Positions 863-62,509 are shown, counted from the stretch's first letter. The stretch: DNA of 64,000 nt from Clostridia bacterium (GCA_017614315.1 JAGACA010000020.1:10195-74194), one strand, 5' to 3'. Numbers and translations are program-made. Notes: generated by a model not told the origin, from the sequence alone.

Positions 863-937
863 TGGAGGCACCATCCAGAATCGAACTGGAGAATGGCGAT
901 TTTGCAGACCGCTGCCTTACCGCTTGGCTATGGTGCC
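863..937 (-). tRNA. tRNA-Cys (GCA)
   Basis: The reverse complement reads GGCACCATAGCCAAGCGGTAAGGCAGCGGTCTGCAAAATCGCC...GGTTCGATTCTGGATGGTGCCTCCA. It folds as a cloverleaf with anticodon loop CTGCAAA and an encoded CCA. Confidence 0.95.
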
Positions 938-1150
938 GGGATATTCGGTTGTGGGAGAACGGGCAGTCCACGGGGCGGACTAACCTCACTTCGTTCGGAC
1001 TGCCGCCCGTTCGTTTCCTTTTTGACCATCAGCCGGATGGTCAAAATTGCCTTCGGCAACCGGAATCGAACCTCGAACCCGCATAAAATGCGGGTCAATG
1101 GGCGCTGCCTCCGTCCATTTATTAAATCCCCTGATCGGGGATTTAATAAA
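938..1150 (-). other. Unassigned structured spacer inside the tRNA operon (hairpins plus a tRNA-like T-loop/anticodon-like arm)
   Basis: Minus-strand reading shows four elements. (1) A 14-bp AT-rich hairpin, TTTATTAAATCCCC-gatca-GGGGATTTAATAAA. (2) A 6-bp stem with the 7-nt loop ATTTTAT (U33/A37-like), followed by GGTTCGATTCC. (3) A hairpin TTGACCATC-cggct-GATGGTCAA. (4) A ~13-bp helix GAACGGGC(G)GCAGTCC...GGACTGCCCGTTC. I could not fold a complete cloverleaf. Confidence 0.3.
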
Positions 1151-1226
1151 TGGAGCGGGAAACGGGGCTCGAACCCGCCACCTCCGCCTTGGCAAGGCGG
1201 CGCTCTACCAAATGAGCTATTCCCGC
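1151..1226 (-). tRNA. tRNA-Gly (GCC)
   Basis: The reverse complement reads GCGGGAATAGCTCATTTGGTAGAGCGCCGCCTTGCCAAGGCGGAGGTGGCGGGTTCGAGCCCCGTTTCCCGCTCCA. The anticodon loop is TTGCCAA. Confidence 0.95.
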
Positions 1227-1230
1227 AGGT

Positions 1231-1306
1231 TGGTGCCTCAGAGTGGAGTTGAACCACCGACACGGGGATTTTCAGTCCCCTGCTCTACCTACTGAGCTAC
1301 CGAGGC
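1231..1306 (-). tRNA. tRNA-Phe (GAA)
   Basis: The reverse complement reads GCCTCGGTAGCTCAGTAGGTAGAGCAGGGGACTGAAAATCCCCGTGTCGGTGGTTCAACTCCACTCTGAGGCACCA. Confidence 0.95.
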
Positions 1307-1312
1307 ATATAT

Positions 1313-1389
1313 TGGCGACCCGAAGGGGGCTCGAACCCCTGACCTCCAGCGTGACAGGCTGGCATTCTAACCAACTGAACTACCGGGCC
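1313..1389 (-). tRNA. tRNA-Asp (GTC)
   Basis: The reverse complement reads GGCCCGGTAGTTCAGTTGGTTAGAATGCCAGCCTGTCACGCTGGAGGTCAGGGGTTCGAGCCCCCTTCGGGTCGCCA. Confidence 0.95.
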
Positions 1390-1392
1390 GAA

Positions 1393-1468
1393 TGGTGGAA
1401 ACAATAGGGCTCGAACCTATGACCCCCTGCTTGTAAGGCAGGTGCTCTCCCAGCTGAGCTATGCTTCC
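1393..1468 (-). tRNA. tRNA-Val (TAC)
   Basis: The reverse complement reads GGAAGCATAGCTCAGCTGGGAGAGCACCTGCCTTACAAGCAGGGGGTCATAGGTTCGAGCCCTATTGTTTCCACCA. Confidence 0.95.
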
Positions 1469-35405: not shown

Positions 35406-36398
35406 TTATCGATCGATGCCTTTCAAAGAATTCTTCTCAAGCAGATACCTGAGAGTGCCGTCGGGCACGAGCTCCTTAAGGGAGGAGAGCTCGCCCCTGT
35501 CGAGAGCTTCGCGGACGCTGCTCGCGCTTATACCGCGGAACCTTTCTATCTCAACGACCTCCACGCCGCAGCGGGGGAGGAGCTTTTTCATTGCTTCGTT
35601 ATACGCGTTCGTGACGGGCGAATACGGCTCCGTGCCCACGAACCTCTTCGTGATGTTCAGCTTCGGCGCGATCCTCTCGCCGAAAAGCGCCGCGTCGAGG
35701 GAAGCGTAAACGCTCTCCGCGTCCGTGCCGTCTTTAAGGAAATAGGTGGGGAAGGTCGCGAAGCTTATCATGTAATCGCCGCTCGGCATAACGTGCACGT
35801 TCTTGATATCCTCCGTGCCCTTTTTGACGAGAGCGAGCCTGTCCTCGAACGGGAAGCGCGACCTGTCCTCGCTCACGACGAAGACGTACAGGTGATCGAC
35901 CGCCTTCGCCGCGGTCTCGATCAGATACCTGTGCCCCAGCGTAAAGGGATTGCAGTTCATTACCGCAGCGCCGACCGTGCCCTCGAATTTTTCGATCGAG
36001 CCGAGCCAGCGGTCGAGACCCGCGCGGGCGTTCTCCATAAAGCAGACGTCGCGCGTGGCGGCAAGCGTGTAAAAGCCTATCCCGCGGAAGAGCATCTCGT
36101 TCGAAGCCTTCGTGAACAGAAAGAGCTTCGTTATCCCGCGCATCATCGCCTCCGAGACGAGCTCGGAAACGACGGTAAGCGCCGCGCCCTCGCCCTGCAG
36201 ACGGGGATCGACGGCGATGAATTTCAAAACCTTCCCGCAAAGACTGCCATTCGCGAGTATCTCGCCGCAGTCGGAAACGAGCTGCACGGTATAGTCCGCG
36301 CCGCCCTCGTATCTGAGACCCATTTTATTAAGGAAGGCCTCTGTTTTTTCAAGGCGTGCGCCCGAAAGCTCAACGCCGCGGGAAACGAAATGATCCAT
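35406..36398 (-). CDS. citC: [Citrate (pro-3S)-lyase] ligase
   Basis: The nucleotidyltransferase motif NCNPFTLGHRYLIE is present, and the N-terminal domain is GNAT-like. Confidence 0.88.
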   Translation of the reverse strand: MDHFVSRGVELSGARLEKTEAFLNKMGLRYEGGADYTVQLVSDCGEILANGSLCGKVLKFIAVDPRLQGEGAALTVVSELVSEAMMRGITKLFLFTKASNEMLFRGIGFYTLAATRDVCFMENARAGLDRWLGSIEKFEGTVGAAVMNCNPFTLGHRYLIETAAKAVDHLYVFVVSEDRSRFPFEDRLALVKKGTEDIKNVHVMPSGDYMISFATFPTYFLKDGTDAESVYASLDAALFGERIAPKLNITKRFVGTEPYSPVTNAYNEAMKKLLPRCGVEVVEIERFRGISASSVREALDRGELSSLKELVPDGTLRYLLEKNSLKGIDR

Positions 36399-36469
36399 TT
36401 GAAGTTCCGTTCAATAATACGCGCCGGAAGACGGACGCCCGTCCTCCGGCACGTCAAAGGTTATTCGGT

Positions 36470-38011
36470 TCAGTCCGCAACCTGTCTGATGACGTCGATA
36501 ACGGAATTGTCCCTGTACATCAGCACGCCGACGATCCTGTCGGTGTACTTGATGGGCTCGGGAGTGCCCGCGATCCTCTCAGCGCGGTCGCGGAGCTTCT
36601 CTATGGTGGTCAAGGGGAGACCCGCCTCGACGAACTTCTCATAAAGCTCGGGACGGGCGGGATTGACCGCGATGCCCTGATCGGTGACGACGACGTCCAC
36701 GGTCTTGCCCGGGGTGCAGATGGTGTTGACCTTGCTGCAGACGGTCGGTATGCGTCCGCGGAGCAGCGGGCATACGACTATCGTCATGCTCGCGCCGGCG
36801 GCCGTGTCGGGATGTCCGCCGACCGCGCCCCTGATGACGCCGTCCGAGCCGGTCATTACGTTGACGTTGAACTCGGTGTCGACCTCAAGCGCGGAGAGTA
36901 TGACGAAGTCGAGCTGATTGACCGCAGCGCCCTTGTTGACATAGCTCGCGTAGTACGAAGCGTCGATCTGCTCGTGGAAGCGGTTGTTCTTGACGGAGTT
37001 CGCCGCGATGAGGTCGAAGCTCTGAACGTCGAGTATCTTCTTGACGAGCCCCTCCTCGTGCATCTGCACGATCTGGCCGGTGATGCCGCCCAAAGCGAAA
37101 CGGCACTTGATGTCCTGCTCGAGCATGTACTCCCTGAGGTACCTCGCGACGGCAAGAGAAGCGCCGCCGGAGCCCATCTGCATGGAGAAGTTGTTCTTGA
37201 AATAGCCGGAAGCCACGATCGCCTTCGTCGCGTACTGGGCGATAAGGAGCTCCTTCGGGTTCTTGGTGAAGCGGGTCGCGCCGCTCATTATGCCGTTGGG
37301 ATCGCCGATATTGTCGACCTTGACCACGTAATCCACCTGGCTTTCGGGGATGCCGAAGGGGGTGTTGGGGAAGGAGACGAGGTGATCGGTGATTATTATG
37401 CACTTGTCGGCATAGAGCGCGTCGAGCTTGGCATAGCCGAGGGAGCCGCAGCAAGAGCCTTCCTCACTGTCGCGGTTATAGCCGTTGGCGTTGCCGTAGG
37501 GATCACAGGACGGAGCGCCGAGGAAGGCGACGTCGATATGCAGCTCGCCGGTCTCGATGGCCGCCGCCCTTCCGCCGTGGGAGCGGAAGATGACGGGGAA
37601 GTCCATCAGTCCGTGGGAAACGGCGTCGCCCAGCTTGCCGCGCAGGCCGCTGGTTTCGATGTGCTTGATGACGCCGTTCTTGATGTGGTCGATAAGCGGC
37701 CAATGGCAGTCGGTAAGGGAGCTCGCCGCAAGGGTAAGACCCTTTATGCCCATCTTCGCGATGACGTCCATGACCATGTTGACGACATAGTCGCCGTTCC
37801 TGAAATGATGGTGGAAGGAGATCGTCATGCCGTCCTTTAGGCCGACGCGCCTTATCGCCTCTTCGAGGCTCGGGAGCACCTTCTTCGAGTGCTGCTGACG
37901 CTCGTCGAAGCTGATGGGATCCTTCTGCCAGAGGTTCTTTTCGTCATATACGCCGTGACAGGCGGAGACCTCGTTTATATGGGGAATGGAATTATAGTCG
38001 AACTCGCTCAT
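36470..38011 (-). CDS. citF: Citrate lyase alpha subunit (citrate CoA-transferase)
   Basis: 513 aa in the citDEF order; the CitF family assignment rests on overall similarity. Confidence 0.9.
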   Translation of the reverse strand: MSEFDYNSIPHINEVSACHGVYDEKNLWQKDPISFDERQQHSKKVLPSLEEAIRRVGLKDGMTISFHHHFRNGDYVVNMVMDVIAKMGIKGLTLAASSLTDCHWPLIDHIKNGVIKHIETSGLRGKLGDAVSHGLMDFPVIFRSHGGRAAAIETGELHIDVAFLGAPSCDPYGNANGYNRDSEEGSCCGSLGYAKLDALYADKCIIITDHLVSFPNTPFGIPESQVDYVVKVDNIGDPNGIMSGATRFTKNPKELLIAQYATKAIVASGYFKNNFSMQMGSGGASLAVARYLREYMLEQDIKCRFALGGITGQIVQMHEEGLVKKILDVQSFDLIAANSVKNNRFHEQIDASYYASYVNKGAAVNQLDFVILSALEVDTEFNVNVMTGSDGVIRGAVGGHPDTAAGASMTIVVCPLLRGRIPTVCSKVNTICTPGKTVDVVVTDQGIAVNPARPELYEKFVEAGLPLTTIEKLRDRAERIAGTPEPIKYTDRIVGVLMYRDNSVIDVIRQVAD

Positions 38012-38012
38012 C

Positions 38013-38903
38013 TTAAATATCCTCCACGGTCATCGTCTTTGCGCGCTCAGCCATCTCAAGCAGGTACTGAGCCCTCGCAACGACGGGCTTGTCGATCATC
38101 TTGCCCTTGAGGGAAGCTACGCCGGAACCCCTCGCGTTCGCCTCGGCGATGGCGTCCATGATGGCGTGCGCCTTGGCGAGATCCTTTTCGGACGGGGTGA
38201 AAACGGCGTGCAGAGGCGCGATCTGGCGGGGATTGATGACGGATTTGCCGTCAAAGCCCATTTTCCGGATCATGGTCGCCTCGGCGATGAAGCCTTCCTC
38301 GTTGTTGACGTCGGAATAGACCGTGTCGAGGGCCATTATGCCCGCCGCCTTGGCGGCGTTCACGATCATGCCGCGGGCGAACATGAGCTCGATGCCCTCG
38401 GGGCTCCTCGTGGTCTTAAGGTCGGTGACGTAGTCCTCAGCGCCGAGGGCGATACCGATCAGGCGCTTCGACGCAAAGGCGATCTCCCTCGCGTTCAGAA
38501 CGCCGTTCGCGCTCTCGATGGCGGCCATCATGCCGGTGGAGCCGACGGGGATGCCGGCTTCGCGCTCGATCCTCTCGATCTCGCGCTCGCACTCGACGAC
38601 GTCCTTCGCGCTGTCGGTCTTCGGCAGCCTTATAACGTCGGGACGGGCACGGACGATCGCCTCGAGGTCGGCTACGCCGAGACCGGAGGAGAGATCGTTT
38701 ATTCGGACGACGAGCTCCTTGGAGCCGTAATGAAGCTTCGTAAGAGCCTTATAGACCAGGAACCTCGCCGCGTCCTTTTCGGTTATCGCGACGGAGTCCT
38801 CAAGGTCGAACATGATCGAGTCGGAGCCGTAAATGTGGGCGTCCCTGATCATACCGGGGTTATTGCCCGGCACAAAAAGCATACTTCTTCTTAATCTGCT
38901 CAT
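38013..38903 (-). CDS. citE: Citrate lyase beta subunit (citryl-CoA lyase)
   Basis: Starts RRSMLFVPGNNPGMI; HpcH/CitE fold. Confidence 0.9.
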   Translation of the reverse strand: MSRLRRSMLFVPGNNPGMIRDAHIYGSDSIMFDLEDSVAITEKDAARFLVYKALTKLHYGSKELVVRINDLSSGLGVADLEAIVRARPDVIRLPKTDSAKDVVECEREIERIEREAGIPVGSTGMMAAIESANGVLNAREIAFASKRLIGIALGAEDYVTDLKTTRSPEGIELMFARGMIVNAAKAAGIMALDTVYSDVNNEEGFIAEATMIRKMGFDGKSVINPRQIAPLHAVFTPSEKDLAKAHAIMDAIAEANARGSGVASLKGKMIDKPVVARAQYLLEMAERAKTMTVEDI

Positions 38904-39202
38904 TTTACCTTGACCTCGCTCCAGACGTATTCCGTGCTCTCGGCGGAACGGTATGCCGCGGCGAGCGTCCTTGCCGCGACGGTGCAGTCCAAAGCGCCCT
39001 TGTCGACGGCGTTGACGTAAGCCTTCGTAACGCCGAGCTCCTCAAGGGTCTCGCGGATGACCTTTTCGATCTGTTTTCCGTACTGCTGCATGACGGCGCT
39101 CTCAAGCGTAAGCTCGATGCCTTCCGTCTCCTTCGGCTCGATCCTGACGATAATATCGCTGGATTCCATCGTTCCGGCTACGCCGGGTCTCTTGATTTCC
39201 AT
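38900..39202 (-). CDS. citD: Citrate lyase acyl carrier protein (gamma subunit)
   Basis: 100 aa with AGTMESSDIIV, which contains the prosthetic-group Ser. Confidence 0.9.
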   Translation of the reverse strand: MEIKRPGVAGTMESSDIIVRIEPKETEGIELTLESAVMQQYGKQIEKVIRETLEELGVTKAYVNAVDKGALDCTVAARTLAAAYRSAESTEYVWSEVKVK

Positions 39203-39388: not shown

Positions 39389-39416
39389 TTGACAAGATAC
39401 GAAAGAAGCGTATAAT
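39389..39416 (+). promoter_or_regulatory. Promoter of the ribozyme-nagB operon
   Basis: TTGACA (39389-39394), a 16-nt spacer, then TATAAT (39411-39416). Confidence 0.7.
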
Positions 39417-39459
39417 ATAATTTTAGTAAAACCGCGTCTTTCCTTGAGGTGGGCGGGAC

Positions 39460-39612
39460 GCGGTCAGCGCCGGGCCCTTACAAAACGGGTGACGAGGACG
39501 GCAGTCATCGAAAGATTCGGCGGATGCTGCCGCGGCGACCGTTCGGCGTGCCGTGAGCGGAAGAGCAAAAAGCGTAATGAAAAGCGTAACAGAGGCTTCC
39601 GCACAGCCGGAC
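39460..39612 (+). ncRNA. glmS ribozyme (GlcN6P-activated self-cleaving RNA)
   Basis: Elements seen: A|GCGCC at 39466-39471; GACGAGG at 39491-39497; helix CGGCAG/CTGCCG enclosing TCATCGAAAGATTCGGCGGATG; and a distal helix GCGGAAG/CTTCCGC (39557-63 / 39596-602). Order and spacing match the Bacillus and Thermoanaerobacter glmS ribozymes as I recall them. Confidence 0.85.
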
Positions 39613-39636
39613 ATTTTCGTATAAGGAGAGATAAAA

Positions 39637-40428
39637 ATGCGCGTTATTATTCAGGACAATTACGATAAGATGAGCCTTTGGGCGGCGCACTATATCGCCG
39701 CGAAGATCAACGCTCACAAGGAAAACCGCCCCTTCGTCCTCGGGCTCCCGACGGGCTCCAGCCCCATCGGCGTCTACCGCGAGCTCGCCCGCATGAACAA
39801 GGCCGGCGAGGTATCGTTCAAAAACGTCGTCACATTCAATATGGACGAATATCTCGGTCTTCCTCACGAGCACGATCAGAGCTATTGGTACTTCATGCAC
39901 GATAACTTCTTCGACCATCTTGTCGATATGAAGCCCGAAAATATCAATATTCTCAACGGCATGACCGACGATCCCGAGGGCGAATGCGCCCGCTATGAGG
40001 AAAAGATCGCCTCTTACGGCGGTATCGACCTCTTTATGGGCGGCATCGGCGTCGACGGGCATCTTGCGTTCAACGAGCCGTACACCTCCCTTTCTTCGAG
40101 GACGGGCGTACGCGATCTCACCACCGATACCCGCATAGTCAATTCCCGCTTCTTCGGCAACGATCCCGAGAAGGTGCCCTCGAAGGCGCTCTCCGTCGGT
40201 ATCGGCACGGTCACCGACTCGAAGGAAGTCCTCGTTCTCATCAGCGGTCACAACAAGGCGCGCGCGCTTGCCGCGACCGTAGAAGGCGGCGTCAGCCAGA
40301 AATGGACCTGCTCCGCGCTCCAGATGCACAACGCGGCGATAATCGCCTGCGACGAGGCCGCCTGCGGCGAGCTTACCGTCGATACGTACAAGTACTTCCT
40401 CGACATCGAAAGGAACGAGAGGCTGTAA
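39637..40428 (+). CDS. nagB: Glucosamine-6-phosphate deaminase/isomerase (long, E. coli-type)
   Basis: 263 aa with [16 protein letters not shown] and [13 protein letters not shown] motifs. Confidence 0.92.
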
Positions 40429-40429
40429 T

Positions 40430-41089
40430 ATGTATAAGATAACTGACCTTTTCGACCTTGACCACACCCTGGCCAAGGACTACCTTTCGCAGTTCACATA
40501 TCCATGGGAGGCGCTGAAGGGCATAAAGGAGTTCATACTCGCTCTCGGCCCCGCTCTCGGCGATGATTACGAAGAGATATCGGAGCACGTCTGGGTGCAC
40601 AAGACCGCCAAGGTCTTTCCCTCGGCGTATCTCGGCGCGCCCTGCATAATCGGCCCGGAGACCGAGGTCAGACACTGCGCGTTCATAAGGGGCTCCGCGC
40701 TCGTCGGCGCGAACTGCGTCGTCGGCAACTCCGTCGAGCTCAAGAATGCCATACTCTTCGATCACGTGCAGACCCCGCATTACAATTACGTGGGCGACTC
40801 GATACTCGGCTATTACAGCCACATGGGCGCTGGCTCCATCACGTCGAACGTCAAGTCCGACAAGAAGCTCGTCGTCGTGCATAACGGCACCGAGGAGATC
40901 GAGACCGGCATCAAAAAGTTCGGCGCGATGCTCGGCGATCACGTCGAGGTCGGCTGCAACGCCGTCTGCAATCCAGGCACGGTCATCGGCAGAAACTCCA
41001 GCGTATATCCCACCTCCTGCGTCCGCGGCGTCGTTCCCGAAAACAGCATCTGGCGCGACAACGGGGAGATCAGGCATAAGAATCAGTAA
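40430..41089 (+). CDS. Left-handed beta-helix (hexapeptide) acyltransferase resembling the GlmU C-terminal domain
   Basis: Hexapeptide repeats run through aa 70-210 (for example VGANCVVGNSVELKNAILFDHV and VEVGCNAVCNPGTVIG). There is no nucleotidyltransferase domain. Confidence 0.65.
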   Translation: MYKITDLFDLDHTLAKDYLSQFTYPWEALKGIKEFILALGPALGDDYEEISEHVWVHKTAKVFPSAYLGAPCIIGPETEVRHCAFIRGSALVGANCVVGNSVELKNAILFDHVQTPHYNYVGDSILGYYSHMGAGSITSNVKSDKKLVVVHNGTEEIETGIKKFGAMLGDHVEVGCNAVCNPGTVIGRNSSVYPTSCVRGVVPENSIWRDNGEIRHKNQ

Positions 41090-41110
41090 CTCTCGAAAGG
41101 CACAAAATCT

Positions 41111-42457
41111 ATGGGCAAATATTTCGGTACAGACGGCTTCCGCGGCGAAGCCAACAAGGGCCTTGACTACGAGCACGCGGTCAAGATTGGCCGCTATCTC
41201 GGCTGGTACTACGGCGCGAGGCTCGGCAAAAAGGCAAAGGTCGTCATCGGCAAGGACACGAGGCGTTCCAGCTATATGTTCGAGTACGCTCTCTGCGCGG
41301 GCCTCATGGCCTCCGGCGCGGACGCGTACATAATGCACGTCACCACCACTCCGTCGGTCAGCTATATCGCCCGCACGGACGATTTCGACTGCGGGATAAT
41401 GATCTCCGCCTCCCACAACCCGTTTTATGACAACGGCATAAAGCTTCTCAACTCCCACGGCGAGAAGATGGACGAGGAGACCATACTCAAGGTCGAGGAC
41501 TACATCGACGGCATAGGCGAGATACCCCTTGCCGAGCGTGAGAACATAGGCCGCACGGTCGACTACGTGGCGGGCAGGAACCGCTATATAGGCTATCTCA
41601 TATCCATGTCGAAGTACAGCTTCAAGGGCATCAAGGTCGGTCTCGACTGCGCGAACGGCGCATCGTGGATGATCGCGAAGGGCGTATTCGACGCTCTCGG
41701 CGCGAAGACCTACGTCATCAACGACGAGCCCGACGGCACCAACATCAACACGAACTGCGGCTCCACCCATATCGAGGGCTTAAGGAAGTTCGTCGTGGAG
41801 AAGGGTCTCGACGTCGGCTTTGCGTATGACGGCGACGCCGACCGCTGCCTCTGCGTGGACGAGAACGGCAACGTCGTCACCGGCGACCACATACTCTACA
41901 TCTACGGCCTTTACATGAAGGAGCGCGGCAAGCTCCTCAACAACAAGGTCGTCACGACCGTGATGAGCAACTTCGGGCTCTACAAGGCGCTCGACGCCGT
42001 CGGCATCGAATACGAAAAGACCAAGGTCGGCGACAAGTACGTTTATGAGAACATGGTCAAAAACGGCCACCGCATCGGCGGCGAGCAGTCCGGCCATATC
42101 ATATTCACCAAGTACGCCACCACCGGCGACGGCATACTCACGAGCATCAAGATGATGGAAGTCATGATCGCGAAGGAGAAACCCATGAGCGAGCTCGCAA
42201 AGCCCGTCGTGTTTTATCCGCAGGTGCTCAAGAACGTCAGGGTAAAGTCCAAGCCCGACGCGCAGAACGATCCCGACGTGCAGGCGGCGGTAAAGAAGGT
42301 CGCGGACGAGCTGGGCGACGCCGGCCGCATACTCGTCAGGGAATCCGGCACCGAACCCGTGATCCGCGTCATGGTCGAGGCCGACTCGAAGGAGATCTGC
42401 GAAAAATACGTCGATTCCGTCATCGACGTGATCCGCGCAAAGGGACATATCGAATAA
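41111..42457 (+). CDS. glmM: Phosphoglucosamine mutase
   Basis: Starts MGKYFGTDGFRG. The active-site motif ISASHNP is present. 448 aa. Confidence 0.94.
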   Translation: MGKYFGTDGFRGEANKGLDYEHAVKIGRYLGWYYGARLGKKAKVVIGKDTRRSSYMFEYALCAGLMASGADAYIMHVTTTPSVSYIARTDDFDCGIMISASHNPFYDNGIKLLNSHGEKMDEETILKVEDYIDGIGEIPLAERENIGRTVDYVAGRNRYIGYLISMSKYSFKGIKVGLDCANGASWMIAKGVFDALGAKTYVINDEPDGTNINTNCGSTHIEGLRKFVVEKGLDVGFAYDGDADRCLCVDENGNVVTGDHILYIYGLYMKERGKLLNNKVVTTVMSNFGLYKALDAVGIEYEKTKVGDKYVYENMVKNGHRIGGEQSGHIIFTKYATTGDGILTSIKMMEVMIAKEKPMSELAKPVVFYPQVLKNVRVKSKPDAQNDPDVQAAVKKVADELGDAGRILVRESGTEPVIRVMVEADSKEICEKYVDSVIDVIRAKGHIE

Positions 42458-48082: not shown

Positions 48083-48619
48083 ATGACACTCAACGACATT
48101 CTGGTTTCCGCGCTTGCTCAGCTCGACCGCGGGAACGATCCCATGACCATGGACGCGTTCCGAAAGAGGCTCACGGACTATGCCAACGACGCGCAGTCGG
48201 ATCTCGCGAGGGCGCTTTGCCTCACGAAGACCGAGACCGCGCACCCGTCGGGCGGCATTGTCGACCTTGCAGACCTCACCCGCGACTGCTTAAAGATAGT
48301 CCGCGTGGAGCAGCTCGGCCATCCCGTAAAGTTCAAGTCCGCCGACACCGGCACAATCGCCCTGCCGTACAACGAAACCGCGACGGTCACATACCGCTGC
48401 GAGCCGAAAAGGCTCGAACAGCCCTCGGACGTGAGTGAGCTCCCGGAGCACGCGCACGGGCTCATCGTCACGTACGTCGTCGGGCGCGAGCGCATGGCGG
48501 GCGACGTCGGCACACAGAGGGGCGCGAACATTTATCTTTCCATGTACGAGGCGGCGAAGTCGAAGCTTCGCCCGCACGTGGGCGAGCCCGCCGCGTACGA
48601 GATCGTGAACCGCTGGTGA
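48083..48619 (+). CDS. Possible podovirus head-to-tail adaptor (P22 gp4-like)
   Basis: RBS AGGAGGAA, 178 aa. The N-terminus LNDILVSALAQLDRG resembles the gp4 N-terminus as I remember it, and the size matches (166 aa). Confidence 0.35.
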   Translation: MTLNDILVSALAQLDRGNDPMTMDAFRKRLTDYANDAQSDLARALCLTKTETAHPSGGIVDLADLTRDCLKIVRVEQLGHPVKFKSADTGTIALPYNETATVTYRCEPKRLEQPSDVSELPEHAHGLIVTYVVGRERMAGDVGTQRGANIYLSMYEAAKSKLRPHVGEPAAYEIVNRW

Positions 48620-48630
48620 CGGAGGGAGAT

Positions 48631-50064
48631 ATGGCAGGCTTCACTTACAGGATCGACCGCTTCATTGGGCTCGATCAGTCGAGGGACGAGAGCCTCGTTT
48701 CGCCGTCTTACTCGCCCGACGCGATGAACATGGATACGTCGGATGGAGGGCTCATGGTCACGAAGGGGTTTTCGAAATACCTTCCGAAGGCGATCCCGTC
48801 TGCGGGTGCCGGCGAGGTCAACAGGATACTGTTTTATAAAAACGCGTCGGGAAGCATCCCCGTCGCGGTGACGGACGGAGGGATATTTACTTATAACGGT
48901 GCGAACGAGACCTGGAACCTCGCATACGAATACGAGGAGGCGCGCGTTTCGGCATGCGTGACGGCGATAATGACGCGCATCGGCATGACCGATACGCTCC
49001 TCATCGCGGACGGGCGCGGGCGGATACTCAAATTCGACGGCTCGTCCTTCACGGCATTCGGCTCGGCTGAGGGCTGTTCGGATATCGCCGTCAATTTCCT
49101 CGCCATGTTCCGCAGCCGTCTGTTTTCGGCGGGGGACGCGGAGCATCCCGACAGGCTTTATTACTCGAAGCTGCCGGGAGGGGACAGGAGCATAGAGGAC
49201 TGGGGGCCGGACGCGGATTCGACCGCGGTCGAGGGCGGACACATCGAGATCGGCGCGGCGGGCGGCGACCCGATAACGGCGCTCGCGGCGATGAGCAATC
49301 AGCTCCTCATATTCAAAAAGAACTCGATCTGGCGTCTCATCGGCGACCGCCCGGGGAATTACACCGTCGAGCTCATAAGCCGCGACTCATATCCCGTTTA
49401 CGGGCTCGCGGCGGCGGTATACCGCGACGTCATCTATTACGTGACCAAGGAGGGGCTTTGCTCCTTCAACGGCGCAGACGCTTCGCCCCTTCCCGACGCG
49501 AGGATGATTAAGGGCGTTATGGCGTCGGCAGACACGTCGGGAACGCGCCTCGCGGTCGTCGGAGACAGGCTCTATTTCACTGTAAAGGTCGGCCTTTTCA
49601 CACGGCTCATCGAGTACGACACAGCGCTCCGCAGGTACATGCAGTACAGCGGCTTTTTCGCCCGCGACATAGTGAACGACGACGGCGCGCTGATCATCGC
49701 GGATTCGACCCGATACCTCGAAAAATGGGGCGTCGGCGACGACTTCGACGGCCGTGCGATCACCGCGTACTGGACAACGCCCTACACCGACCTCGGAGAC
49801 AAGGCGGCGATAAAGACGCTCCGCGCGCTGTACCTTCGCGGAAAGTCGTACGCCAACGGCAGGGTGGTAGTCGAAACGGATGTGGGCTTCACGAACGAGT
49901 CGACGAGCATACTGCTTCCCGAAAGCGTATCCGAGGTCGCCGAGGTGAAGCTCAAAAACGAGGGCCGCGTGTTCAGACTGAAGCTCGCGAACGACCTCGG
50001 CGGACGCTTCGCGCTCACCGGCGGCGCCGAGCTCGAGATGAGCGTAAGGAAAAGAGCGGAATGA
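48631..50064 (+). CDS. Possible podovirus tail hub/nozzle protein (P22 gp10-like)
   Basis: The RBS GGAGGGA precedes MAGFTYRIDRF, giving 477 aa (gp10 is 472 aa). It is beta-rich, and the C-terminus RVFRLKLANDLGGRFALTGGAELEMS resembles the gp10 C-terminal pattern. The assignment is from memory. Confidence 0.35.
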   Translation: MAGFTYRIDRFIGLDQSRDESLVSPSYSPDAMNMDTSDGGLMVTKGFSKYLPKAIPSAGAGEVNRILFYKNASGSIPVAVTDGGIFTYNGANETWNLAYEYEEARVSACVTAIMTRIGMTDTLLIADGRGRILKFDGSSFTAFGSAEGCSDIAVNFLAMFRSRLFSAGDAEHPDRLYYSKLPGGDRSIEDWGPDADSTAVEGGHIEIGAAGGDPITALAAMSNQLLIFKKNSIWRLIGDRPGNYTVELISRDSYPVYGLAAAVYRDVIYYVTKEGLCSFNGADASPLPDARMIKGVMASADTSGTRLAVVGDRLYFTVKVGLFTRLIEYDTALRRYMQYSGFFARDIVNDDGALIIADSTRYLEKWGVGDDFDGRAITAYWTTPYTDLGDKAAIKTLRALYLRGKSYANGRVVVETDVGFTNESTSILLPESVSEVAEVKLKNEGRVFRLKLANDLGGRFALTGGAELEMSVRKRAE

Positions 50065-62416: not shown

Positions 62417-62509
62417 GGAGGAGTCGCCTAGTTTGGTCGAGGGCGCACGATTGGAAATCGTGTAACGGTCATAAGCCGTTCGAGAGTTCGAATCTCTCCT
62501 CCTCCGCCA
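62417..62509 (+). tRNA. tRNA-Ser (GGA)
   Basis: GGAGGAGTCGCCTAGTTTGGTCGAGGGCGCACGATTGGAAATCGTGTAACGGTCATAAGCCGTTCGAGAGTTCGAATCTCTCCTCCTCCGCCA. It has a long variable arm and an encoded CCA. Confidence 0.95.

Follow-up and report, generated by a model that had tools for sequence, protein, structure and literature searches.

A glmS-class ribozyme placed before a nagB-hex-glmM operon in rumen and gut Clostridia

Introduction

What is a glmS ribozyme doing in front of nagB? Published reviews place this ribozyme class in the leaders of glmS (PMC5473149, PMC6765202, and PMC3997798). In a 64,000-nucleotide stretch of DNA from a Clostridia bacterium (GCA_017614315.1, JAGACA010000020.1:10195-74194; hereafter, the window), a ribozyme of this class precedes an operon of three other genes, nagB, hex, and glmM, which together with its promoter occupies positions 39389-42457. 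The first of these genes encodes NagB, a glucosamine-6-phosphate (GlcN6P) deaminase/isomerase, so that a textbook metabolite-dependent ribozyme, described for glmS alone, here stands before an enzyme of the opposite reaction. An original prediction, made from the sequence of the window alone, proposed that the operon is under GlcN6P feedback, that NagB may run anabolically from fructose-6-phosphate (Fru6P) and ammonia, and that the locus provides a GlmS-independent entry into UDP-GlcNAc (uridine diphosphate N-acetylglucosamine) synthesis.

We followed this locus through RNA and protein families, related genomes, and the literature. The central part of the proposal stood: a genuine glmS ribozyme is placed to control nagB-hex-glmM. 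The GlmS-independent entry did not. In a large, mostly uncultured clade, a known ribozyme class has been re-targeted to an enzyme that is not homologous to GlmS but acts at the same metabolic node. As an explanation, we favor, with a probability of about 0.6, a functional GlcN6P-dependent ribozyme that gates a strongly promoted nagB-hex-glmM operon, with an anabolic NagB coexisting with GlmS.

Identity of the ribozyme

An Rfam scan of the whole 64-kb window returned a match to the glmS ribozyme family (RF00234) at 39455-39612 on the + strand. The RNA scores 60 bits on this covariance model, where the gathering score is 37 (E = 2.6e-11), which is far beyond chance, and the ribozymes of relatives scored 63-71 bits. 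The promoter, cleavage site, GACGAGG motif, two helices, and nagB ATG that the original prediction had picked out were all found in place. The predicted cleavage site A|GCGCC lies at 39466-39471, with the cut predicted between A39466 and G39467. It is followed by a short, 4-bp P1 (39474-39477/39487-39490), by the directly read core motif GACGAGG (39491-39497), and by the core element AUCGA...UCGGCGGAUG at 39507-39527. P2 (CGGCAG/CTGCCG) and P4 (GCGGAAG/CTTCCGC) can likewise be read directly within 39455-39612, and the same + strand interval holds P2a, P3, and P4.1 (GCGU/GCGU).

Could this RNA be an inactive relic, left behind when glmS was lost or moved out of a former ribozyme-glmS operon? 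Such an origin has precedents to draw on, as canonical operons in which glmS is followed by a Hex homologue do exist (locus L153, described below), and two relatives of the window (L031 and L032) carry glmS directly upstream of the ribozyme. However, a relic would have decayed, and the alignment of 58 ribozyme copies speaks against this. The core elements are invariant or nearly so across the 58 orthologues, with 49 invariant columns that include AGCGCC, GACGAGG, and the TCGA...TCGG.GG core, in species whose synonymous sites are near saturation. Moreover, 13 of the 27 pairs drawn by RNAalifold show double compensatory changes, distributed over P1, P4, P4.1, and the P3.1 pseudoknot. The RNAalifold consensus mis-drew P2 and P2a owing to pseudoknots; hence, P2 was checked separately, and all six of its pairs form in 57 of 58 sequences through eight different arm combinations. 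Because the core is invariant while the helices, P2 included, are kept by compensation, the RNA is under selection for its structure, and we regard the relic explanation as extremely improbable. We conclude with high confidence that this is a true glmS-class ribozyme controlling the nagB-hex-glmM operon, and its cleavage is predicted to depend on GlcN6P.

Conservation in related genomes

To place the locus in its clade, NagB relatives were searched in one genome per species, which gave at least 542 matches; the best 80 were taken as loci L001-L080. These best 80 NagBs are 90-96% identical and come from rumen and gut Clostridia, mostly from uncultured genomes, although L024 belongs to an isolate, Ruminococcaceae bacterium YRB3002. 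We then sought the ribozyme in each locus with a profile built from the ribozyme itself; four of the 80 loci were too short upstream to be evaluated. It was present in 57 of the 80 species-level loci, which equals 57 of the 76 evaluable ones.

The genes behind the ribozyme are shuffled, and despite this, the ribozyme always lies directly 5' of the first gene of the cluster. The order seen in the window, nagB-hex-glmM, follows the ribozyme in 24 loci, with two more in which glmS lies downstream and one with a second glmM-like match downstream. The order hex-nagB-glmM follows it in 12 loci and, with glmS just upstream, in another three, whereas hex-glmM-nagB accounts for three. Single loci show glmM-nagB and nagB-glmM, three show nagB-hex before the contig ends, and in seven loci the ribozyme precedes nagB alone.

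To estimate how unusual this is, we scanned public metagenome contigs for the exact pattern of the ribozyme core, without conditioning on nagB, and obtained 80 readable loci. The first downstream gene was glmS in 71 of these, a truncated glmS remnant in one (L133), and nagB or the hex cluster in six, each of the six with a clade-type NagB (87-92% identical); the downstream sequence was too short in the last two. The association with glmS is therefore overwhelming and this clade is the exception, in line with the expectation, voiced when the locus was first noticed, that glmS ribozymes sit almost always 5' of glmS (72 of 80, counting the remnant). We found no paper linking a glmS ribozyme to a nagB/glmM cluster, although a passing mention in earlier surveys is possible. 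The remnant itself (L133, 1860-2406, human gut) consists of a ribozyme followed by no more than a truncated, fused glmS N-terminus (…MCGIVGYNG…) and is to be read as a pseudogene or as a chimera of the assembly.

Proteins of the operon

Family profiles bear out the earlier gene calls: a 263-aa NagB, an acyltransferase without the uridylyltransferase half of GlmU, and GlmM. The nagB gene (39637-40428, + strand) encodes a GlcN6P deaminase/isomerase of 263 aa that scores 375 bits on TIGR00502 (cut-off 237). The protein belongs to the long, hexameric type found in Escherichia coli, with 57% identity to E. coli NagB, and its closest solved relatives are hexameric deaminases. All 81 sequences retain the catalytic residues D72, D141, H143, E148, R172, and K208. 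A second set of positions (S151, S152, R158, K160, and T161 in E. coli) we take to be the allosteric site for N-acetylglucosamine-6-phosphate (GlcNAc6P). Here, S152 is kept in all 81 clade sequences, and S151 is replaced by Thr, R158 by Gly, and K160 by Arg in all 81, with T161 replaced by Asp or Asn in 76 of 81. The hexameric NagB structures 7lqm and 7lqn keep R-I-K-T at positions R158-T161. Judged from sequence, these changes suggest that activation by GlcNAc6P has been lost or altered.

The second gene, hex (40430-41089, + strand), encodes a stand-alone left-handed beta-helix acetyltransferase of 219 aa. Hex matches TIGR03992 at positions 213-393 only and TIGR01173 at positions 301-433 only, carries Hexapep/LbH Pfam matches, and is without a nucleotidyltransferase domain. 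It is homologous to the C-terminal glucosamine-1-phosphate (GlcN-1-P) N-acetyltransferase domain of archaeal-type GlmU, and its best match (E = 2e-22) is the corresponding left-handed beta-helix domain of Sulfolobus tokodaii ST0452, which acts on GlcN-1-P and galactosamine-1-phosphate (2ggo and 5z09). The equivalents of E. coli GlmU R333, E349, K351, H363, Y366, N386, and K392 are kept in 53 of 53 Hex orthologues, and N377 is His in all 53; these are presumably residues of GlcN-1-P binding and acetyl transfer. The Hex family is very large in gut metagenomes, with at least 8000 clusters at 90% identity. Public records name Hex "UDP-N-acetylglucosamine pyrophosphorylase" (hits P0024, P0048, P0060, P0111, and P0117), a name that is wrong because the nucleotidyltransferase domain is absent.

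The third gene, glmM (41111-42457, + strand), encodes a 448-aa phosphoglucosamine mutase (GlcN6P to GlcN-1-P) with 543 bits on TIGR01455 against a cut-off of 448, four PGM/PMM Pfam domains, and the active-site motif SASHNP in its translation. The operon ends with it at 42457, where it abuts a convergent gene. Opposite nagB, hex, and glmM run long antisense open reading frames (465 aa at 40373-41770 on the - strand, for example). Their GC content at third codon positions (GC3) is near 0.5, compared with ~0.8 for the sense genes, and we rejected them as genes and regard them as by-products of high GC content.

glmS and glmU in related loci

Is the route GlmS-independent? The window contains neither the MCGI N-terminus nor the TRWATHG motif of glmS, which upholds the earlier observation that glmS is missing from it, and glmU is likewise absent from these 64 kb. 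The window covers 64,000 of the 64,234 bases of ruminant-gut metagenome scaffold ERZ28653833 scaffold_129, and the absence of both genes holds for this stretch.

The relatives were more informative. Seven of the 80 loci have full-length glmS within 10 kb of the cluster; the encoded proteins are 613-622 aa long, begin with MCGIVG, and end in KSVTVE (759 bits on TIGR01135 for the GlmS of L034). In five of these seven loci, the ribozyme stands before hex or nagB and never before glmS; in L031 and L032, the glmS directly upstream of the ribozyme has no ribozyme of its own. The other two of the seven, L004 (8067-12834) and L034 (8087-10927), both of 62% GC, show the arrangement glmS-nagB-hex(-glmM) with no ribozyme. 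Rfam at its gathering threshold placed no ribozyme before any of the seven glmS genes, and nhmmer --max at E <= 10 plus a core-motif search over the 600 nt upstream of each found no remnant. The ribozyme targets the NagB route and not glmS, and where relatives bear glmS, that glmS is ribozyme-free.

Because relatives have an intact glmS, GlmS independence is not a property of the clade. Nor does Hex appear to stand in for a missing GlmU: in YRB3002, a canonical bifunctional glmU, scoring 579 bits on NF010934 (cut-off 450), is found 1.5 kb downstream of the operon, and its acetyltransferase residues are intact. Unlike bifunctional GlmU, Hex stands alone at 219 aa, and at least one relative has it together with a complete GlmU. 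Still, a strict version of the proposal can be framed, in which the organism lacks glmS altogether, the ribozyme-gated NagB is its sole entry into UDP-GlcNAc, and Hex replaces the acetyltransferase of GlmU. The empty window and the 73 of 80 loci without glmS within 10 kb would fit this, as would the far stronger constraint on NagB than on GlmS where both occur. However, absence within 10 or 64 kb says little about a megabase genome, and the glmS genes beside the cluster in seven related species, together with the intact acetyltransferase domain near the YRB3002 operon, make the strict version unlikely.

Promoter and leader

Transcription of the operon is predicted to start at ~39423 from a sigma-70-type promoter at 39389-39416 (+ strand), in which a -35 TTGACA (39389-39394) and a -10 TATAAT (39411-39416) are separated by a 16-nt spacer. 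This promoter scores 12/12 against consensus, in a region with six promoter-like sites compared with 1.6 expected. The 12/12 pattern TTGACA-N16/17-TATAAT is found in the window and in 13 related loci, 50-67 nt 5' of the cleavage site. At the other end of the leader, the directly read ribosome-binding site AAGGAGAG (39623-39630, + strand) starts 11 nt after the end of the Rfam match and ends 6 nt before the nagB ATG.

The stretch between the promoter and the cleavage site holds a leader hairpin (39431-39464, + strand; minimum free energy of -20.8 kcal/mol in the window), which stops two bases short of that site and displays a Shine-Dalgarno (SD)-like GAGGTG (39446-39451) in its loop. Among the orthologous leaders of L001-L075, GGAGG occurs in 49 of 58 (shuffle mean 4.8, maximum 11), about 20 nt (standard deviation 2.4) 5' of the cleavage site and mostly unpaired. 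The stem covaries, since the arms of a given locus pair at 6.5/8 and cross-locus controls at 5.0/8; the 5' arm comes in 49 distinct sequences. The leaders of canonical glmS-linked ribozymes (L085-L164) show a looser enrichment of SD-like motifs, with GGAGG in 16 of 70 where 3.4 would be expected.

Two roles for the motif were considered and rejected. It is not the start of a small upstream open reading frame, as a start codon follows 4-10 nt 3' in just 12 of 49 leaders (ATG in three), and it is not an anti-anti-SD element, as a downstream CCTCC occurs in only one of 58. Nor could the leader pair with the nagB ribosome-binding site, to which it has no complementary sequence. We propose that the hairpin and its motif may form a 5' stabilizer of the STAB-SD type, which ribozyme cleavage would detach. 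The STAB-SD stabilizers of Bacillus mRNAs (Agaisse and Lereclus 1996, cited in PMC3997798) have in common with this leader an untranslated SD-like sequence near the mRNA 5' end in hosts with 5' to 3' decay. By contrast, the element here lies upstream of the ribozyme cut and so would be removable on command. Given that canonical leaders are enriched for it as well, an SD-like element 5' of the cut may have gone unnoticed as a contributor to the control of mRNA decay by this ribozyme class.

Proposed mechanism and the direction of NagB

These parts can be assembled into a working scheme. When GlcN6P is scarce, the leader would remain intact, capped by the 5' hairpin showing its SD-like sequence, and the operon would be expressed. 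NagB would then aminate Fru6P with free ammonium to give GlcN6P, GlmM would convert this to GlcN-1-P, and Hex would acetylate GlcN-1-P to N-acetylglucosamine-1-phosphate for UDP-GlcNAc synthesis. As GlcN6P rises, the ribozyme would cut between A39466 and G39467 and detach the protective leader, leaving an mRNA with a 5'-OH end that is presumably degraded by an RNase J-type pathway, which would turn the operon off. Two properties of the class described earlier bear on this scheme: its cleavage leaves a 5'-OH, after which RNase J1 degrades the mRNA (PMC3997798), and the glmS ribozyme integrates activating GlcN6P with inhibiting hexose metabolites (PMC5473149). Shut-off would come at the point where mass action would make the reversible NagB destroy GlcN6P. 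At least part of the clade would use this route beside an ordinary, ribozyme-less GlmS; the route would be suited to the ammonia-rich rumen and would not necessarily replace GlmS.

The direction of NagB is the critical step, and we hold with moderate confidence that it is anabolic. Under this ribozyme, a cell with a catabolic NagB would produce the enzyme at low substrate and lose it at high substrate, a perverse arrangement, so NagB is probably anabolic, in which case the same ribozyme would provide ordinary end-product feedback. E. coli shows that GlcN6P can come from the reverse reaction in living cells, as overexpressed NagB suppresses a glmS defect there (PMC11822699). Taken together, the conserved link across 57 species, the 5' position kept through permutations, the nagB-alone loci, the biosynthetic partners, and the lack of a catabolic neighbor favor an anabolic NagB on sequence grounds. 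In tblastn searches with E. coli NagA, NagE, and NagC as queries, neither NagA nor NagE had a homologue in the whole window or within 10 kb of nagB in any of the related loci L001-L080, and the NagC query gave one ROK-family match, on the opposite strand in L035.

The perverse logic would be reversed if cleavage instead removed an inhibitory leader, so that GlcN6P induced its own degradation by a catabolic NagB. Enzymes of this family are annotated and characterized as deaminases everywhere, and the leader is conserved and structured, such that its removal could in principle activate the mRNA. However, the leader offers neither a complement to the nagB ribosome-binding site nor a CCTCC partner through which it could inhibit, and in characterized cases cleavage by this class destabilizes the downstream mRNA (PMC3997798). 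The surroundings fit no better, as the co-transcribed genes are biosynthetic (glmM, the GlmU-like acetyltransferase, and sometimes yvcK) and there is no nagA, transporter, or NagR-type context. We therefore consider a catabolic NagB more improbable even than the strict GlmS-free version.

A further possibility is that glmM and hex are the true targets, with nagB a passenger that equilibrates Fru6P and GlcN6P and has no net synthetic role. The two genes are unambiguously biosynthetic and present in most ribozyme-bearing loci, and an HDV-like (hepatitis delta virus-like) ribozyme is known 5' of glmM in Faecalibacterium prausnitzii (PMC6765202). Yet the ribozyme precedes nagB alone in seven species and nagB-yvcK in L036, and NagB is better conserved than Hex or GlmM. 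An equilibrating deaminase repressed by its own substrate would also create a positive, destabilizing feedback on GlcN6P. We regard a passenger role as about as improbable as the catabolic one.

The anabolic, ribozyme-gated NagB that we favor also faces evidence on the other side. The equilibrium and kinetics of characterized NagBs favor deamination, and repression of glmM at the time its substrate is abundant is not intuitive. Relatives have GlmS and a complete GlmU, which leaves the NagB route not obviously required and makes Hex look redundant. Finally, 19 of the 76 evaluable loci carry an equally conserved nagB without the ribozyme, so ribozyme control is not essential to the role of NagB. 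Seven ribozyme-less loci contained no divergent ribozyme and no other riboswitch near nagB.

A YvcK/GlmR homologue is encoded inside the ribozyme operon in two relatives, as nagB-yvcK-hex-glmM in L068 (10795-11757) and as nagB-yvcK in L036 (5794-6738). YvcK/GlmR is a UDP-GlcNAc-binding regulator that has reportedly been proposed to stimulate GlmS in Bacillus subtilis. Within the ribozyme operon, it may regulate NagB or another step.

A bolder form of our explanation would make reverse, non-allosteric NagB the main route to GlcN6P in the rumen and gut clade, with the ribozyme re-targeted from glmS, GlmS retained as a faster-evolving, ribozyme-free backup, and the detachable 5' stabilizer sharpening the switch. 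We offer this only tentatively, at slightly below even odds.

Constraint and origin of the cluster

Among the proteins of the cluster, conservation is highest in NagB. Over the same genome pairs, identity was 91-95% for NagB, 86-92% for GlmM, and 86-93% for Hex, compared with 55-78% for GlmS. The simplest reading of such strong NagB identity is very strong purifying selection of the kind acting on highly expressed core enzymes. Recent horizontal transfer was rejected as the main cause of the 90-96% identity: nagB GC3 tracks each host genome, and in more distant relatives, third codon positions are only 45-60% identical to those of the window copy while first and second positions are 93-95% identical. 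An older transfer within the clade is possible; flanking genes are shared with the window in L001 only, the one locus syntenic with it.

A clue to the origin of the cluster comes from L153 (2301-4851), a metagenome contig of 27% GC, in which a canonical ribozyme-glmS operon continues into a 213-aa Hex homologue of 47% identity. The position of this homologue after glmS ties the Hex family to UDP-GlcNAc synthesis outside the rumen clade as well. This order of genes suggests a replacement of glmS by nagB as the leading gene of such a ribozyme operon.

Discussion

How does this system compare with those already described? Relative to the canonical glmS ribozyme of Bacillus subtilis and other Firmicutes, the RNA family, core, cleavage sequence, helices, and 5'-leader position are the same, and so, presumably, are GlcN6P-triggered cleavage and 5'-OH-dependent decay. 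The genes downstream differ, being nagB, a stand-alone acetyltransferase gene, and glmM in place of glmS, and the RNA here has a 4-bp P1 and a tight leader hairpin presenting an SD-like motif.

E. coli glmS mutants can be suppressed by overexpression of NagB (Vogler et al. 1989, cited in PMC11822699), a case that shares with our favored explanation a NagB-I running backwards to supply GlcN6P for the cell wall. In E. coli, however, the situation was artificial and the enzyme was a catabolic, GlcNAc6P-activated member of the nag regulon. By contrast, the arrangement here is natural, conserved, and operonic with glmM, with Gly at the Arg158 position, a probable GlcN6P feedback, and a reaction direction that we infer from context. 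A second parallel comes from the gut Clostridia themselves: in Faecalibacterium prausnitzii, metabolite-dependent control has been proposed for the HDV-like ribozyme 5' of glmM (PMC6765202). Both cases place a self-cleaving RNA before a hexosamine-pathway gene other than glmS, but the ribozyme class and the first gene differ, and nagB is not part of the F. prausnitzii arrangement.

If NagB does run in reverse, the locus points to a natural and widespread ammonia-dependent entry into cell-wall amino-sugar synthesis. Such a route would spare glutamine and the ATP spent on it, much as glutamate dehydrogenase does relative to the glutamine synthetase-glutamate synthase (GS-GOGAT) pathway, in a habitat that is both rich in ammonia and agriculturally important. 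It would also offer a rationale for the design, namely a reversible enzyme gated by its own product. More generally, a riboswitch can move between non-homologous enzymes that make the same metabolite. For annotation, nagB in these genomes is no evidence of amino-sugar catabolism, and for antibiotic development, compounds targeting the glmS ribozyme would hit another node in these organisms.

Other features of the window

Divergent from the ribozyme operon, the - strand carries a citrate lyase set (citD, citE, citF, the ligase gene citC, and citXG) at 35406-39202, which is conserved in L001 only. Five tRNA genes are clustered near the left end of the window (866-1468, - strand), and one tRNA gene with a long arm lies near the right end (62417-62506, + strand). 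The genes at 48083-50064 belong to no family apart from a weak SU10_adaptor (phage adaptor-like) Pfam match, and this segment may be a prophage remnant.

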